DNA from: a bacterium | Lineage (GTDB): Bacteria; Verrucomicrobiota; Verrucomicrobiia; Limisphaerales; RI-55 | DNA: 64,000 nucleotides | Direction of reading: 5' to 3' | NCBI GenBank assembly: GCA_031362805.1 | Contig: JANLTG010000053.1 | Coordinates: 42,207 to 106,206, forward strand | Shown: piece by piece, positions 11,901 to 14,782 of the stretch | Numbering within the stretch: the stretch's first letter is position 1 | How the letters are laid out: each line of letters begins with the position of its first letter | Notes under the pieces: generated by a model | Database searches by the model: none | What the model was told of the DNA's origin: nothing | What the model saw: only the letters and a program-made list of their open reading frames with translations | Program-made: the position numbers and the translations under genes

Positions 11901-14782
11901 TCACGACGGTCACCGACCCGCTCGGTTTCCAGACCCAGGATCAGCACACCACCAACGGGCTGCTCGTCCGCCACACGGACGCCGGTGGCCGCGACATCCT
12001 GCTGGGCTACGACAGCGCCGGCCGCCGCACGAACGTGACCGACCGGCTCGGCCGAAGCACCGGGATCGGTTATCACGCGCCGAGCGGCAACGTGGCGGCC
12101 ATCACCAATGCCGATGGCTCGGTGCTGCGCTACGATTACACGAGCCGCACCTTTAATGCGCTCACCTTGCACGACGTCCGGCAGATCACCCTGCCCGACG
12201 GACGGATCGAGCAGTTCCTTAACGACGCGAACGGCAACGTCGTCGGCTACACCAACCGCGGCGGCTTCGTGACACGCATTAGCTACAACGCGCGCGGCCA
12301 GGTGCTCACGGCCACCAACGCGGCGGGCGGCGTCGTCACCTACACCTACGATGCAGCGGGCCGGTTGCTGACGAGCAGGGATTCCGAGACCGGCAACACC
12401 ACCTTCGCCTATGACCAGTTCAGCCGGCTCACCAATGTGGTGCATCCGGACAGCGCGGCGCGGCGCCTGACCTGGGACGCGGACGACCGGCTCACCAGCA
12501 CGACTGATGAGCGCGGCAACAACCGGGCCTTCGGCTATGACAGCAATGGCCGGCTCACGACGACTCTCGACCCGCTCGGTGCGGTCAGCCGCTTCGCCTA
12601 CGACCTCGCGGACCGGCTGGTGGGCACGACCAACCGGCTGGGCGACGCGGTGACGCGCAGTATCAACGATCGCGGCGAGGTGGTGCAGGTGGCAAATGAG
12701 CAGTCGGAGAACACGCTGTTCACCTATGACGCCCGCGGCCGGCTGACGACCCTGCGCGACGGCGGCTTCCAGAACTGGAACTTCAGCTATGACGACGAGG
12801 ACCGTCTCACGTCCTTCGAGAATCCGCTGGGTGAACGCCTCACATTTGCGCGCGACGTGCTGGGTGCGGTCGTAGGTGCCACCAATCCGTTGGGGCACGT
12901 CACAAAGCTCCAACGAGACGTCATGCGACGCCCGACCAACCGCATCGACGCCCTCGGCCGGCAGTTCCAGTTTGGCTATGATGCGCGCGGCCTGCTCACG
13001 AACGTCGTGCATCCCGGCGTGGGCGCCGCCGCGTATCAGCGCGACCCGCTGGGCAACCTCACCCGCCTCACCGATCTCAATGCCCGGCAGTGGAATTTCA
13101 ACTGGTCGGCGATGGGCCGGCTGCTCTCGGTGGCCGATCCGCTCAATCGCAGCAACCGCTTCGATTATGACAACCGGGGCCGGCTCGCGCGCGCCTACTA
13201 TGCCGACAACTCAATCGCCACGAACACCTACGATCCCGCCGGCAACGTGACCCGCCGCCAGCACAGCGCCGGACCCGATCTGCCGTTCACCTACGACGCG
13301 CTCAACCGCTTGAGCACGGCCCATGACCTGGCCTTTGCCTACGACGCCGAGGGACGCGTCACCAACACGGTGAGCGGCGGGCTGAACTTCGGCGCGGCCT
13401 ACGATCGCGCGGGCCGGCTGACGAGCATCACCTACTCCAACGATTCCTTCACCGTGAACTATTACTATGACAGCCGCGGCCTGGCCGTGAGCGCTTCGGG
13501 CGGGTTTGGCAACGGTTATCTCTCATGGGATCGCGATGCGGCGGGAAGAATCGTGGCGATCAATCGCGGCAACGGCGCTTTCGGCACCCTGACCTACGAC
13601 GACGACGGCCGGCTCACCCGGATCAAGGATGGCAGCGTCCTGGACCTGCGCTACACCTACAACACAGCGGATGAAGTCACGGGCGCCGACCTGCAGGCCC
13701 CCGCGCTGCCGTCCGATTTTGCGTTCAGCAACACCAACAACTTCACCTACGACGCCGCGCATCAGGTCAGCACCACCGGCTACACCTACGACGCGCGCGG
13801 GCGGATGACCGCGCTGGCCGGCAAGCCCGTGAGCTACGACGGCGCGTCGCGGGTGGTATCCGCCGGCGGGGTGACCTACACCTACAACGGGCTGGGCCAG
13901 GTGCTCACGCGCACCGAGAATGGCGTGACGCGGCGCTATTATTACAACCACGCGATGGCCGGCTCCCCCATCATGATGGAACGCGACGACGCGCCGGGCA
14001 CCACCCTGCGTTACTACGTTTGGGCCCCGGACGGCGCGCTCCTCTGGATGATCGACGCGGCGGACGTGCATGCCGTGAGCTATTACCACTTCGATCGCGT
14101 GGGCACGACGCTGGCCCTCACGGATTCAAACGGCACGGTGACCGACGCTTACGCGTGGACGCCCTTCGGCGAGTTGGTAAGACGCACTGGCACCAGCACC
14201 CAACCGTTCACCTACGTGGGGCGCTGGGGCGTGCGCGCGGACAACGGGCTCTTCCACATGCGGGCGCGGTGGTATGATCCGAAGACCGCGGCGTTTCTCA
14301 CGCGCGATCCCGTCTGGCCGCGGCTGACCCAGGCGCTGGAGTTGAATCCCTATGACTACGCGGCGGATCAGCCGTTGGAGTTCGCTGATCCTGCTGGCCG
14401 TTACCCGAGACGCGTGGAGATTCTCCGGAATTCACCTCGGGCATTCAATCGCAGCGACAGAGAGCTGGAACAAGTATGGGTGCCTGGATGGGAGGAAGCC
14501 GAAGAAGAGATCTATGAGGCGAAGGATCGAGAAGAGCGCAACGGCGTCGCCGCCGCCACCGGTGCCACCACAACGGCCGCGGCAGGCTTTATCGACCAGG
14601 TTCGCCTCCCTGTTCTGCGAAGGCATTCCCCCTACCACCGGTTTCCCCCGGTCGCCGATACATCGGAACCTCCCGATTGGAGAGACGCGGCTCCCTTAAC
14701 CGACCGTCCGGTCATTGGCCACGCCGACGAGAACAGTGGTCTAAATGATCAGTCCGGAGGTTTTACGGTCTGGTTTAGATAA
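2906..14782 (+). CDS. Giant secreted beta-helix-repeat / RHS (YD-repeat) protein with variable C-terminal domain
   Basis: Single uninterrupted ORF (track 2858..14782). The likely start is the ATG at 2906, giving MKTRLTPWSVGCAMTALLAAALTLQPGEAA, a Sec-type signal. Six occurrences of the TFTV-NTND-GPGSLRQAI module start and repeated ATATD-GNTSEFS module ends. Many YD repeats lie from about 11165 onward. The RHS core reads PFTYVGRWGVRADNGLFHMRARWYDPKTAAFLTRDP ... NPYDYAADQPLEFADPAG. Confidence 0.85.
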   Translation: MKTRLTPWSVGCAMTALLAAALTLQPGEAATFTVSNTNQSGAGSLPQAILDANASAGADFIAFNILSAGLNIAPNAALPAITEAVTIDGTTQPSFAGSPLIEISGQSAGAGVDGFRILSGGSVIRSLIINRFLGDGIELTNGGNNLIAGNWIGLNNNGTLDQGNTFNGITVTNSPNNTIGGLATVDRNVISGNNQNGVFIQGLAATGNAVLGNYIGLNATGGVAVANSLSGVLINHAPANTVGGTAAAARNVISGNSQSGVRIENTNAYANLVAGNYLGTSTNGITDLGNGNYGVLLFNARSNTVGGVTAGHRNVIAGNNVAGVRIEGANATTNAVRGNFIGTTITGASALPNGGPGVHVLTSAAGNTIGGAAAGEANVIAFNSVDGVWVQAGTNNAIRANLIHSNGGLGIDVDLDGVLANDAGDTDVGANQRQNHPLLTGATNSAGGITIAGTMNSTASQAFTVDFYASSVPDATGSGEGEFYLGNTAVNTAGDGNTTFQVTLPSVALGRWVTATATDANGNTSEFSPAVRAESTLVPATFTVVNTNDFGAGSLRQAIIDNNLAVSSANNVIQFAIPNSGPHVIRPAAALPTFLEAATVNGFTQSGAVSNTLATGNSAVWMIHLDGVSAGTGANGLRFASSGNVVRGLQIFRFNSDGLEFTNSHNNVVVGNSLGRLDETGVTFANTGDGVHLLQSSNNRLGGALPGDRNIIAGNGSDGIEINGTNSVANLVLGNHIGTDGGGTVDRGNLQSGILISGAPNNTIGGTAAGAGNLLSGNTQEGLEINGLAATNNVVLGNRIGTEVTGLTGLGNAGAGVLLANNSRFNLIGGLAAGAGNRIAFNGGDGINVANGTNNALRANLIWTNSALGIDLDPNGLTANDAGDIDAGGNQLQNFPVITNAMLNAGSTVIQGTFNSTASTTFALDFFQSVFRDVATVNGEGQFYLGSANVVTDGSGNATFDVNLPTTATGGRWITATATDPNGNSSEFSGAFTATSLLPGQPFLVTNTNDAGPGSLRQAILENNLTFNGAPNTLNFAITSAEPHVITPATVLPTITAAVIVNGYSQAGASANTLATGNNAVLKIRIDGNAAFFNGLRVAAAGTVVRGLSFTRFSNPMLQLDAPGFASVEGCFFGLDTDGVTSFSPASEGVNVNNSPGNAIGGSAPAQRNVFGGLSTAIALASNGAVSNTVTGNYIGTDRHGTGGSGNLRGITINGGRTNSIGGTTAALRNVISSNRFFGLQIIGTGSAGNRVVGNYLGLNAAGTGPMGNGTHGIDISSSTAFGNVIGGIAAGEANVIAHSGQNGLNVSSGTNNTLRGNSIYNSGYLGIDLGGFGLVTFNDAGDADTGANQLQNFPVVTGGQGTLSGTTIQGTLNSKPSETFQLDFYSNPATEGDGYGEGRKYLGSGSTTTGADSNAVFSINVAGVMDGRHVTATATDANGNTSEFSLSAPLAVTFAPTTFTVVNTNDAGPGSLRQAILESNFKPSGSRNTIAFNITGAGPHVIRPLTPLPTLVESALIDGYSQPGAAANTAAIGFNAVLQIVLEPGTPFLDGLTLDFQNSVLRGLVMTEFGAAITVRGTGHVIEGCVLGLTAVGLPAPNAQAINGLPGSSNNVIGGITPAARNVIAGRNSAHAITLQNTTGWLIQGNFIGTDLSGLNTAGSQAGGISISSGTGNVVGGTAPGAGNVIGGNDSGDGVSIYLGFSNRVEGNLIGVGADGVTILRNSPAGVSIENSAQNVVGGSSAGARNIISGNGTGVSLAFSGTSSNYVVGNFIGTDLTGTLPVPNYYGVSISADTNFIGGVLAGEGNRIAFNQGDGILVGGGTGNALRGNEVFANGGIGIGLGFSVVTPNDPGDPDAGANNLQNFPVLASGSINVASTAVGGALNSTPSTQFTLDFFANTAPDPAGNGEGQQYLGATTATTDGAGNAVFSVSLPRRAVGRYLTATATDPAGNTSEFSAAFRAASTQPGLTFTVTTEADSGPGSLRQAMLNSETNHAGANNVIQFALYGPGPHTIAPTTELPLLREAVTIDGFTQSEASANTQVNTDNAVRKIRLDGFATAGAYFDGLKLAAGGSVIRGLWIRNYAGNAIEITSSGNVVEGCYLTENNSPLVINSGAGNRIGGTTPAQRNVIVGNATVGVYVYSTASSGTLVQGNFIGLNPDGISTSANDIGVQFADSPLNVVGGSEAARNFIVGNAAQGVLIDGTGSVSNRVEGNFIGVRPDGAVAGNGGPGILLSGGSDNVIGAPRATPPGQLSLQGIPPATGVMNAIAANLGAGIEVVAGVRNSLRRNLVYSNRDLAIDLAGDGVTDNDVLDGDPGPNNLQNFPVINSATIGAGNITLIGSLAAAPNTSYQIDIYSNVNCDSPSLHGEGQYWRGSFHVTTSGAGTVNFNQTVNQPGIGSFITATATDPVGNTSEFSRCVLGDCSDNTPRVFLVTNTNSSGPGSLANAVDQANAGCSPATINFNIAGAGEKRIFLFEPLILSSRITINFANQGGGGVIIDGSSLPAGDSAINIVANYVLVQGANIQNIGAAVQVGAPAAPVSNVTFTGNMVNVTGRAGILAYLNSSTITATGKDIAGNFVELVNGTGNTVTVSGQNVGGDLLNTMGNGSVAVNLNGRFLIEGSIDSREGGSPPLPPIISNASCTGPNTISITMSGSAPANFPVTLTPIYFNKVNPKSGIAGTTVVGNSDAMGEYLFSLMESPPTGTVAVSGLVTIAGNSSEASLPVSLEGCAVDSPFIVLPFENHPLAGVAGDPISTFNGELYDTLLPDLNLGGPMPLLFQRFYGSALGRATLLPRLGTNWTHNFEATLTNSATAVGISLPPGLILAFTNQAGVFTLLNRADLPFQLRTSGANYLLADPRDQRVFTFNSSGQLTQIADSRGNAHTLAYAGALLSSATDGLGRTLTFSYSAGGSLTNVSDGTRNAGFQQSGNLLAVSRTPLNLPTTNNYTVSGPFGALLQSSQRPVGNTPLTQFYAGSAVTSQGVASSPPSTIQYVGPVTTVTDPLGFQTQDQHTTNGLLVRHTDAGGRDILLGYDSAGRRTNVTDRLGRSTGIGYHAPSGNVAAITNADGSVLRYDYTSRTFNALTLHDVRQITLPDGRIEQFLNDANGNVVGYTNRGGFVTRISYNARGQVLTATNAAGGVVTYTYDAAGRLLTSRDSETGNTTFAYDQFSRLTNVVHPDSAARRLTWDADDRLTSTTDERGNNRAFGYDSNGRLTTTLDPLGAVSRFAYDLADRLVGTTNRLGDAVTRSINDRGEVVQVANEQSENTLFTYDARGRLTTLRDGGFQNWNFSYDDEDRLTSFENPLGERLTFARDVLGAVVGATNPLGHVTKLQRDVMRRPTNRIDALGRQFQFGYDARGLLTNVVHPGVGAAAYQRDPLGNLTRLTDLNARQWNFNWSAMGRLLSVADPLNRSNRFDYDNRGRLARAYYADNSIATNTYDPAGNVTRRQHSAGPDLPFTYDALNRLSTAHDLAFAYDAEGRVTNTVSGGLNFGAAYDRAGRLTSITYSNDSFTVNYYYDSRGLAVSASGGFGNGYLSWDRDAAGRIVAINRGNGAFGTLTYDDDGRLTRIKDGSVLDLRYTYNTADEVTGADLQAPALPSDFAFSNTNNFTYDAAHQVSTTGYTYDARGRMTALAGKPVSYDGASRVVSAGGVTYTYNGLGQVLTRTENGVTRRYYYNHAMAGSPIMMERDDAPGTTLRYYVWAPDGALLWMIDAADVHAVSYYHFDRVGTTLALTDSNGTVTDAYAWTPFGELVRRTGTSTQPFTYVGRWGVRADNGLFHMRARWYDPKTAAFLTRDPVWPRLTQALELNPYDYAADQPLEFADPAGRYPRRVEILRNSPRAFNRSDRELEQVWVPGWEEAEEEIYEAKDREERNGVAAATGATTTAAAGFIDQVRLPVLRRHSPYHRFPPVADTSEPPDWRDAAPLTDRPVIGHADENSGLNDQSGGFTVWFR
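2996..10195 (+). repeat. Five tandem protein-coding modules (about 510/460/457/511/462 aa) of parallel beta-helix type
   Basis: Module starts read from the sequence at nt 2996, 4526, 5906, 7277 and 8810; a sixth, partial module starts at 10196. Each opens with [TF]F[TL]V.NTN..G.GSLRQAI, continues with NxIxGN / GNxIG beta-helix rungs, and closes with GEGQ.YLG...TATATD..GNTSEFS. Confidence 0.8.
11165..14398 (+). other. RHS/YD-repeat cage region of the giant protein
   Basis: Begins with GDPISTFNGELYDTLLPDLNLGGPMPLLFQRFYGS (an RHS N-terminal plug-like motif). Dozens of YD repeats follow (YDSAGRRTNVTDRLGR, YDAAGRLLTSRD, YDSNGRLTTTLDPLG). It ends at the DPAG motif at nt 14387-14398. Confidence 0.8.
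14399..14779 (+). other. C-terminal variable (putative toxin/effector) tail after the RHS DPxG site
   Basis: 127 aa after FADPAG: RYPRRVEILRNSPRAFNRSDRELEQVWVPGWEEAEEEIYEAKDREERNG...GFTVWFR. I recognise no family motif. Its position matches the encapsulated toxin domain of RHS proteins. Confidence 0.5.

Follow-up and report, generated by a model that had tools for sequence, protein, structure and literature searches.

Architecture of the RHS locus

The stretch of DNA analyzed here, referred to as the window, spans 64 kb and carries a giant RHS gene on its forward strand (positions 2906 to 14782), recognized through matches to the RHS_repeat, Beta_helix, NosD, and DUF6531 models. The reading frame (3,974 codons; 2858/2906 to 14782) is open from a TTG codon at 2858, and translation likely starts at the ATG codon at 2906 (MKTRL...). 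From the N to the C terminus, the encoded protein comprises a signal-peptide-like region, five beta-helix modules, a DUF6531 plug (residues 2769 to 2829), a YD-repeat shell, an Rhs core, and a tail. The N terminus, MKTRLTPWSVGCAMTALLAAALTLQPGEA, resembles a Sec signal by eye; signal peptides were assessed throughout by eye and with a crude heuristic. Each of the five repeated beta-helix modules closes with TATATDxxGN[TS]SEFS. The shell was detected with PF05593 (RHS_repeat; E = 1.7e-62, 13 stretches) and TIGR01643 and is partially matched by NF041261, while profile searches of the protein returned no PAAR, VgrG, or LXG domain.

The Rhs-associated core domain (TIGR03696, Rhs_assc_core) occupies residues 3768 to 3847 (14159 to 14398, forward strand) and scores 51.7 bits against a cutoff of 32.5. 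The match stops at residue 3847, the G of a DPAG site encoded at 14387 to 14398, and the D and G of this DPxG motif are invariant in 12 relatives. In Tse5, RhsA, and Rhs1, the C-terminal domain is autoproteolytically released and encapsulated, and the canonical core motif reads DPxG-X18/19-DPxG (PMC10684867). The aspartyl protease motif in the window is a variant, DPVW-X23-DPAG, with a noncanonical upstream half. Retention of the core aspartates makes cleavage plausible; by analogy, we assume that the tail would be self-cleaved at DPAG and encapsulated.

The tail that follows the DPAG site consists of 127 residues (14399 to 14779; amino acids 3848 to 3974) and ends at a stop codon at 14780 to 14782, exactly as placed by the first-pass annotation. 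It begins with a 24-residue linker, RYPRRVEILRNSPRAFNRSDRELE (14399 to 14470, forward strand), common only to the closest relative (L001/P0001). The remaining 103 residues (14471 to 14779, forward strand) have no homologue in the databases searched. The first third of the tail is highly charged, and the unique part consists of an acidic helix, an Ala/Thr-rich segment, and a Pro/Arg-rich stretch leading to GGFTVWFR. The charged and Ala/Thr-rich segments had been described previously, but the roughly 60 Pro/Arg/Asp-rich residues preceding the terminal GGFTVWFR had been passed over. The composition is disorder-like, with a GRAVY of −0.87 for the whole tail, an R:K ratio of 16:1, 11 Pro residues, and a pI of 4.7 for the unique part. 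AlphaFold2 gave no confident fold (pLDDT 45.9, pTM 0.14) and a single helix at tail residues 33 to 48. The tail is hydrophilic and predicted to be largely disordered; of 86 clade tails, only one is shorter.

The earlier statement that the tail falls outside recognized toxin folds holds. Searches against Pfam, NCBIfam, and PDB sequences gave zero matches, and hence no toxin family. A word-indexed search of 5.8 billion proteins returned no homologue, and an exhaustive phmmer search of 1.84 billion representatives returned nothing at an E value of ≤0.001. Comparison with 104 other tails revealed no homology in frame, out of frame, or antisense. The frame of the tail ranks best of six by codon usage, yet it is atypical for the genome: its codon log-likelihood ratio (LLR; −0.08) lies under those of all 312 127-codon windows of bona fide genes in the 64 kb, and GC3 is 0.60 in the unique part versus 0.85 in the core. 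When the unique 309 nt (103 codons) were shuffled, 3.3 to 3.7% of the shuffles stayed open. An independent assembly (L091) contains an identical tail, with 2 mismatches in 6,932 nt (99.97% identity), both outside the tail; the tail is therefore not an artifact. The 127 residues are genuinely encoded in frame, as the C-terminal extension of a beta-helix-decorated RHS protein that appears to be of the Sec type.

A 20-nt gap separates the RHS stop codon from a 201-aa partner gene (14803 to 15408, forward strand). Its product begins with a putative signal peptide and carries a single YD-repeat pair, a calcium-binding repeat of the TSP3 type, and a beta-sandwich resembling FN3, as judged from RHS_repeat and TSP3_bac matches, an orthologue alignment, and an AlphaFold2 model. 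In this model (pLDDT 82.7), the YD sheet can be superposed on the shells of ABC toxins (4igl, 6l7i, and 5kis) with an rmsd of 1.2 to 2.1 Å. As had been noted, this apparently secreted protein is the sole downstream product before a convergent gene (15427 to 16623, reverse strand), which encodes a 398-aa, multi-pass membrane protein-like product without a Pfam family. The convergent gene is syntenic in L088, L089, L091, and L092, with 79 to 80% DNA identity in relatives. The neighbors of the RHS gene in the window encode an MFS transporter, a GFO/IDH/MocA oxidoreductase, a membrane protein, and an AbiE toxin-antitoxin pair.

Exchange of the C-terminal cassette

The first-pass annotation had proposed a search for C-terminal swapping among orthologues, and the result is positive: five close relatives, with cores that are 83 to 93% identical in DNA, have five unrelated tails in this position, and orthologues do not share a conserved tail. 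A different tail lies between conserved flanks in each of L001, L088/L089, L092, and L090. Core identity to the window is 88% (DNA) and 93% (protein) for L001, 83% for L088/L089, and 85% for L092. L001 retains 92.6% DNA identity over 14387 to 14467 and none thereafter, while L088, L089, and L092 split from the window directly at the DPxG motif, with homology stopping at 14383 to 14391. Homology with L088/L089, L090, and L092 restarts at 14877 to 14887. These limits define a replaceable cassette of ∼490 nt (14392 to 14886, forward strand) that holds the tail, the 20-nt spacer, and the 5′ part of the partner gene, where the signal peptide is encoded. The cassette is flanked on both sides by DNA conserved in relatives, namely, the end of the Rhs core upstream and the first YD repeat of the partner gene downstream. 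The 5′ limit is 14392 (or 14468 when compared with L001), and the 3′ limit is ∼14880; the latter could partly reflect fast divergence of the signal peptide rather than a recombination junction. The convergent gene lies outside the cassette.

The tails found in this slot in relatives are 168 to 202 residues long; for one more, only the final 54 residues are known. GC3 of all four sister tails is 0.57 to 0.62 versus 0.79 to 0.87 in the flanks, as expected of exchanged cassettes. At a larger scale, 105 tails fall into 65 clusters, and some tail families recur across phyla, which indicates that tails are exchanged horizontally. One motif, TLSPVGAVP, is common to the tails of L092 and P0006/L020.

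The short tail in the window might instead be nonfunctional filler or a decayed remnant: after a recombination or deletion event, the core would be followed only by a brief stretch of unstructured read-through sequence, and the protein would carry no active cargo. Its rank as second shortest in the clade, the single helix modeled at a pLDDT of 46, the disorder-like composition, a codon score under that of every real-gene window, and the lack of any homologue are all consistent with such an origin, and the chance that 103 codons stay open (∼3.5% of shuffles) is not negligible. However, GC3 is equally low in sister tails that are longer or belong to a recurring family (L092), and the codon score of the L001 tail is similarly low, so these features characterize tails in general and do not point to decay of this particular tail. 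The tail shows no homology to the 104 others out of frame or antisense, and the remainder of the 11.9-kb ORF is intact. Moreover, clade tails are at least 95 aa long in all but one of 86 cases, which argues for selection on a minimum-size cargo. We therefore regard decay as a rather unlikely explanation; the tail is probably a poorly ordered, lineage-specific effector or cargo peptide.

Absence of an immunity gene and a model for the tail

No immunity gene was found within or adjoining the cassette in the window, where the 20-nt gap leads directly to the partner gene. The corresponding gap measures 22 to 90 nt in close relatives; gaps of 20 to 90 nt leave no room for an immunity gene, and none was found in the tail slot of these relatives. 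Small ORFs overlapping 14300 to 15430 on either strand gave no Pfam match and no immunity-family ORF, in agreement with the first-pass annotation. Downstream of clade RHS genes, no known immunity family was found, and Pfam immunity families were absent from 26 ORFs (the nearest downstream ORFs of partner-less loci plus three intervening ORFs). What had been taken for a quirk of this locus is instead clade-wide: the swapped cassettes of relatives also lack an immunity gene, and sequence comparison indicates that this absence extends to the RHS clade as a whole. N termini in the clade are signal-peptide-like (by eye and crude heuristic), 28 of 52 contain DUF6531, and PAAR, VgrG, and LXG domains were not detected. 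A known toxin domain was found in none of 85 tails from this apparently Sec-exported clade, and the few Pfam matches (Plug, porin, DUF1559, Kelch, and FG-GAP) do not look like an enzyme-toxin repertoire.

An immunity gene located elsewhere in the genome, one option raised previously, would make the tail a classical antibacterial toxin. RHS architecture, core motif, and extreme tail polymorphism are together characteristic of polymorphic toxin systems (PMC3482391, PMC10684867), and the window covers only 64 kb of the genome. Against this, the cassette is exchanged without an accompanying gene in the five close relatives and in 45 of 79 clade loci, and an acquired tail would kill siblings unless an unlinked immunity gene arrived simultaneously. 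Given also the 26 downstream ORFs without an immunity family and the 85 tails without a known toxin domain, we consider this scenario improbable.

The partner gene might itself offer protection, either by encoding an immunity protein that acts generically, whatever the tail, outside the cell or in the periplasm, or by encoding a cap for the shell. Linkage is tight: the gene starts 20 nt past the RHS stop codon and adjoins the RHS gene in 45 of 79 related loci; its product is apparently exported, and its YD hairpin fits the RHS-shell fold and could dock on the shell. Partner similarity, however, follows the RHS core and not the tail: among locus pairs, similar partners accompany unrelated tails in 60 cases and similar tails in 12, and L085 and L086 have 91% identical partners with unrelated tails. 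The partner is thus not a tail-specific immunity protein and could not specifically inhibit unrelated tails. Of the 79 loci, 31 lack the partner, and some of these have tails homologous to those of partner-bearing loci. Its YD sheet, TSP3 repeat, and FN3-like sandwich are adhesin-like, unlike known immunity proteins. A protective role is accordingly very doubtful; from its sequence relationships, the gene appears to be a conserved operon partner that is kept when tails swap.

On balance, we favor as likely the interpretation that the tail is an orphan cassette carrying cargo for an RHS system that is extracellular, polymorphic, and devoid of immunity genes. The RHS protein would be exported by Sec and fold outside the cytoplasm, where the YD shell would enclose the tail and the core aspartyl protease would cut at DPAG(R). 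The freed tail may then be delivered as cargo to non-kin cells, such as eukaryotic grazers or unrelated bacteria; with such targets, an immunity gene would be neither needed nor exchanged along with the tail. Double crossover is the probable route of tail replacement, with the 3′ end of the core as the upstream arm and the YD-repeat DNA of the partner as the downstream arm. Such exchange would leave no displaced tips downstream, and neither orphan core fragments nor displaced tips were found elsewhere in the window. With respect to toxicity, the tail is a candidate effector; a target absent from the producer and a nontoxic tail, both suggested earlier, are each possible. This RHS group does not behave as a classical toxin/immunity pair.

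Comparison with known systems

With classical Rhs/YD polymorphic toxins (enterobacterial RhsA/B, Serratia Rhs1/2, Pseudomonas aeruginosa Tse5, and Bacillus subtilis WapA), the window protein shares the YD shell, the DUF6531 plug, a core ending in DPxG, and a C-terminal region that varies among close relatives. WapA is Sec dependent, as the window protein would be. In contrast to the classical systems, a putative signal peptide and five beta-helix modules replace PAAR, VgrG, or LXG domains, the core motif is DPVW-X23-DPAG instead of DPxG-X18/19-DPxG, and the cassette has no immunity gene inside or adjoining it. In addition, a conserved partner gene bounds the cassette downstream, and orphan tips do not accumulate.

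The BC components of ABC (Tc) toxins (TcdB2-TccC3 and YenB-YenC) form an RHS cocoon around a hypervariable C-terminal cargo and have no immunity gene because their targets are eukaryotic. The superposition of the partner's YD sheet on 4igl, 6l7i, and 5kis extends this likeness. The window protein differs in being exported via a putative signal peptide; profile searches of its 3,974 aa found no TcB beta-propeller, SpvB, or TcdB_toxin_mid domain, and no TcA-like gene lies near the RHS gene.

Relative to teneurins and bacterial teneurin-like YD-shell proteins, the RHS protein scores 31.5 bits with TEN_YD-shell (PF25023), under the Pfam cutoff of 50, lacks a Tox-GHH or ABD domain, and keeps the core aspartates. 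Common to both are a YD shell (predicted to be extracellular in the RHS protein), N-terminal modules of the adhesion type, and a C-terminal domain without an obligatory toxin activity.

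Architecture and surroundings of the RHS gene

The RHS gene lies on the forward strand and comprises 3,974 codons; its frame is open from a TTG at 2858, has its likely start at an ATG at 2906, and closes with the stop codon at 14780-14782. According to Pfam, RHS repeats occur in 13 stretches (E = 1.7e-62), accompanied by regions of the right-handed beta-helix/NosD type and by the RHS plug, DUF6531, at residues 2769-2829. The N-terminal two thirds of the protein (window 2906-10900) is built from five tandem modules of ~550 residues each, in which a TNTNDxGxGSLRQAI-like motif is followed by a right-handed beta-helix and then by a domain carrying TATATDxxGN[TS]SEFS; after the five modules comes a sixth beta-helix region, which is divergent. 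Residues 17-881 (window 2906-5500) have no NCBIfam match. The Rhs-associated core with its aspartyl-protease motif occupies 14159-14398, and NCBIfam model TIGR03696 (51.7 bits; cutoff, 32.5) places the end of the core domain at residue 3847, the glycine of DPAG (nt 14387-14398). The protease motif reads DPVW-X23-DPAG, compared with the canonical DPxG-X18/19-DPxG. Among related proteins, the first Asp is replaced by Glu in some (P0003 and P0009), and the second motif is DSAG at locus L001 and DASG at locus L088.

No secretion-system genes were found within the window. The RHS gene is surrounded by an MFS transporter, an oxidoreductase, an AbiE toxin-antitoxin pair, ABC transporters, lptA/lptB, hprK, and a dcw cluster. 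The type IV AbiE pair (18463-19922, reverse strand), whose toxin is an AbiEii nucleotidyltransferase (E = 7e-29) and whose antitoxin is AbiEi (E = 8e-8), lies downstream of the RHS locus at a distance of 3.7 kb; an AbiEii gene is also found near the RHS locus in the related L003. The dcw cluster (39745-58054; ftsZ, ftsA, murG, ftsW, murD, mraY, murF, murE, and ftsI) lies around a 784-aa MurC-MurB fusion (44516-46870, reverse strand) with Mur ligase domains, FAD_binding_4, and MurB_C. Such fusions have been described from Verrucomicrobia, in agreement with the taxa to which the nearest RHS relatives belong; fusion and relatives together point to Verrucomicrobiota as the probable source of the window. 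Long ORFs lacking a Pfam family are present at 16880-18406 (forward), 20234-21055 and 32896-34614 (both reverse), and 1470-2846 (forward), the last of which is probably a shadow ORF, as it overlaps an antisense GFO/IDH/MocA gene.

A real, orphan, and replaceable C-terminal tail

The 127 residues after DPAG (residues 3848-3974; window 14399-14779, forward strand) are real and orphan, and they form an exchangeable cassette at the C-terminus of a polymorphic RHS protein. The first-pass annotation located and described this tail correctly; the sequence that it quoted is also right, except that its ellipsis leaves out ~60 Pro/Arg/Asp-rich residues. Its statement that the tail matches no toxin fold it recognised agrees with all searches performed: no match was found in Pfam, NCBIfam, or PDB sequences, and no homologue was retrieved either by a word-indexed search of 5.8 billion proteins or by an exhaustive phmmer run against 1.84 billion cluster representatives (E ≤ 0.001). 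Likewise, no frameshifted or antisense homology was detected to 104 other tails of the clade (RHS proteins related to that of the window by their core ends) or to other parts of the window. An apparent “GLND” likeness to the tail of L088 received no support from tblastx, and no C-terminal sorting motif is common to the clade tails. Because the tail lacks homologues, it was modelled with AlphaFold2 from its single sequence, with no alignment; the sole secondary-structure element in the resulting model (pLDDT, 45.9; pTM, 0.14) is a helix spanning the acidic EEAEEEIYEAKDREER segment. At this confidence, comparing the model with known folds would carry no meaning. The tail is hydrophilic (GRAVY of -0.87 overall; pI of 4.7 for its unique part) and contains 16 Arg, 1 Lys, 11 Pro, 0 Cys, and 0 Met.

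Both the sequence and its reading frame are genuine. Locus L091, which comes from an independent assembly and a separate sequencing run, matches window 9866-16797 at 99.97% identity; it differs only at 12505 and 12508, and its tail has no mismatch. In a codon-usage score trained on confident genes of the window, the tail obtains a log-likelihood of -0.08 per codon, the best of its six frames. This value is under those of all 312 real-gene windows (minimum, 0.063) and well over those of all off-frame windows (maximum, -0.36). Moreover, only 3.3 to 3.7% of shuffles of the unique 309 nt of the tail stay open. GC3 drops exactly at the boundary, from ~0.85 in the core to 0.60 in the tail, and such an odd composition could be taken as a sign of decay, as if the tail were nonfunctional filler or a remnant. 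We consider this reading unlikely: GC3 is 0.57 to 0.62 in the three measurable sister tails and 0.79 to 0.87 in their flanks, and the odd composition is therefore a trait of tails as a class. Across the clade, GC3 is lower in the tail at most loci, not all.

C-terminal swapping beyond the DPAG site, which the first-pass annotation proposed to look for, is evident among close relatives, which carry different tails at the same slot. P0001, the protein of L001, has a 93% identical core and also shares the 24 residues directly after DPAG (DNA identity, 92.6% over window 14387-14467), after which its tail, of 168 residues in total, is wholly different. At L088 and L089, the cores are 83.5% identical in DNA, similarity is lost at 14383-14391, and the tail is ~200 residues long with a weak FG-GAP repeat; similarity returns at 14887 and continues at 79% through the downstream partner gene and a convergent membrane-protein gene. 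L092 (core 84.8% identical in DNA) carries another tail of ~200 residues, which has a TLSPVGAVP motif in common with tails of distant loci, and homology returns at 14877. L090 has a fifth tail end, with homology returning at 14887. Judged from these alignments, the variable unit is window 14392 (or 14468) to ~14880, which takes in the tail, the spacer, and the codons for the signal peptide of the partner. These boundaries suggest that a double crossover, bounded by the core end and the YD-repeat DNA of the partner, would replace tails. No other Rhs core fragments, and so no displaced tips, occur in the window, which fits replacement of this kind.

A genome scan with alignment of the core end yielded 79 further loci (44 to 56% identity) in Verrucomicrobiota, Acidobacteriota, Chloroflexota (Anaerolineae), Desulfobacterota, Kiritimatiellia, Lentisphaerota, and other phyla. 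Tails in the clade range from 95 to 366 residues, with one locus at zero, and that of the window is the second shortest. Singletons account for 45 of 105 sampled tails, and several tail families recur across phyla; one recurring family has eight members, among them L004, L026, L028, L035, and L073. No known toxin family was found in 85 distinct tails; their only Pfam matches are TonB Plug (3), Porin_4 (2), LamB (1), DUF1559 (1), Kelch-type families (one each), and a marginal Nnf1 (1). The pseudopilin-like DUF1559 tail (E = 7e-19) belongs to L007, a relative of 64% identity whose beta-helix architecture is the same, and two of the three loci with Plug tails are labelled Akkermansia muciniphila MAGs. 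Some clade tails are thus made up of envelope- or propeller-type domains (DUF1559, Plug, Porin_4/LamB, Kelch, and weak FG-GAP), not toxins (L007:6703-7368, L016:5673-6521, L017:3956-4804, L018:3968-4816, L086:5652-6374, and L088:3410-4012). By a simple heuristic, the N-termini of the 52 full-length members are signal-peptide-like; DUF6531 is present in 28, adhesin-type modules are occasional, and PAAR, VgrG, and LXG were found in none.

A conserved partner gene and the missing immunity gene

The gene downstream of the RHS gene (14803-15408, forward strand) is a conserved partner. Its product has an N-terminus resembling a signal peptide, a single YD-repeat pair, a TSP3 repeat, and a domain at the C-terminus. 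In an AlphaFold2 model based on an alignment of 33 homologues (pLDDT, 82.7), a four-stranded YD sheet superposes on ABC-toxin RHS shells with an rmsd of 1.2 to 2.1 Å over 43 to 49 residues; the other two parts are TSP3 helices and a sandwich resembling FN3 domains. At 45 of 79 assessable loci, a protein of this type, which combines a signal peptide with just one YD pair, begins no more than 150 nt from the RHS stop. Single-YD secreted-type proteins of 105 to 830 aa with a variable C-terminus form a family found directly after clade RHS genes in many phyla (further examples, L007:7377-7970 and L002:1925-2401). At only three further loci does another ORF intervene between the RHS stop and the partner (L002:1539-1892, L019:6492-6758, and L071:2452-3105; 117, 88, and 217 aa, respectively), and none of the three has a Pfam family at an E value of ≤0.001. 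As the RHS ORF of L071 stops right at DPMG, with a tail length of zero, its 217-aa intervening ORF may be a split-off tail. A promoter/terminator scan of 14200-15700 gave no sites, which fits co-transcription, weakly.

As a rule, this RHS lineage lacks the immunity gene. The first-pass annotation had noted that none is adjacent to the tail, and this holds: eight candidate overlapping or alternative-frame ORFs were rejected, all having negative codon scores and no family match. In the window and the compared relatives, the gap from the RHS stop to the next gene is only 20 to 90 nt and therefore leaves no room for an immunity gene. No Pfam immunity family was found in 26 scanned clade ORFs, namely, the nearest downstream ORFs of loci lacking a partner plus the three intervening ORFs. 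Immunity encoded elsewhere in the genome is, in our view, very unlikely. The partner itself was ruled out as tail-specific immunity by a co-variation test. Its C-terminal part is similar while tails are unrelated in 60 locus pairs, compared with 12 pairs in which both are similar; at L085 and L086, for instance, partners are 91% and cores 88% identical, and tails are unrelated. The partner is therefore inherited with the core. A partner that follows the core could still act as a generic protector, a role that we consider highly improbable.

Interpretation and comparison with known systems

The usual interpretation of RHS proteins is that of toxin/immunity pairs directed against kin. We rather favor a composite reading in which the tail is a cassette that supplies cargo to an extracellular RHS system devoid of immunity; given that, the odds tilt slightly toward an active effector. 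The absence of immunity suggests that the cargo would act on cells other than the kin of the producer or would be no toxin. By analogy with Tse5, RhsA, and Rhs1 (PMC10684867), the aspartyl protease of the core may cut off the tail, which would be kept inside the shell, a proposal weakened by the noncanonical protease motif.

More speculatively, the putatively Sec-exported RHS clade and its single-YD partner could constitute an undescribed two-gene extracellular system whose shell carries something other than a kin-directed enzyme toxin. Its cassettes would be disordered peptides or porin-, TonB plug-, pseudopilin-, Kelch-, or FG-GAP-like modules, swapped alone with no immunity gene in the slot from the core end to the YD repeat of the partner, and the YD hairpin of the partner would dock on or extend the shell. 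Such a system might serve in grazer defence, in delivery of binding modules or membrane-inserting ones, or in teneurin-like variable surface display.

An unassignable RHS tail alone is ordinary; the interest lies in the clade-wide immunity-less exchange of cassettes and the conserved partner. The picture is of a widespread, putatively Sec-dependent RHS lineage in which a variable tail is exchanged with no immunity gene and a single-YD secreted protein is the constant neighbor. Should the tails be effectors, they represent a large untapped set of activities harmless to their producer; otherwise, RHS shells serve for more than toxin delivery. In both cases, such cassettes could be mined from metagenomes by a simple rule based on the two conserved flanks.

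No description of this RHS lineage or of the single-YD partner was found by full-text searches of the literature, and the partner family appears to be undescribed. The classic survey (PMC3482391) lists Sec/T2SS-type RHS toxins in the same phyla and yielded no account of the present arrangement. The RHS protein of the window lacks the parts that define BC components of ABC toxins and those that define teneurins. The locus also differs from a polymorphic toxin system in two functional respects, having neither a recognizable toxin nor a linked immunity gene, whereas in structure, with its shell, core, and polymorphic C-terminus, the protein is a member of the Rhs/YD family.
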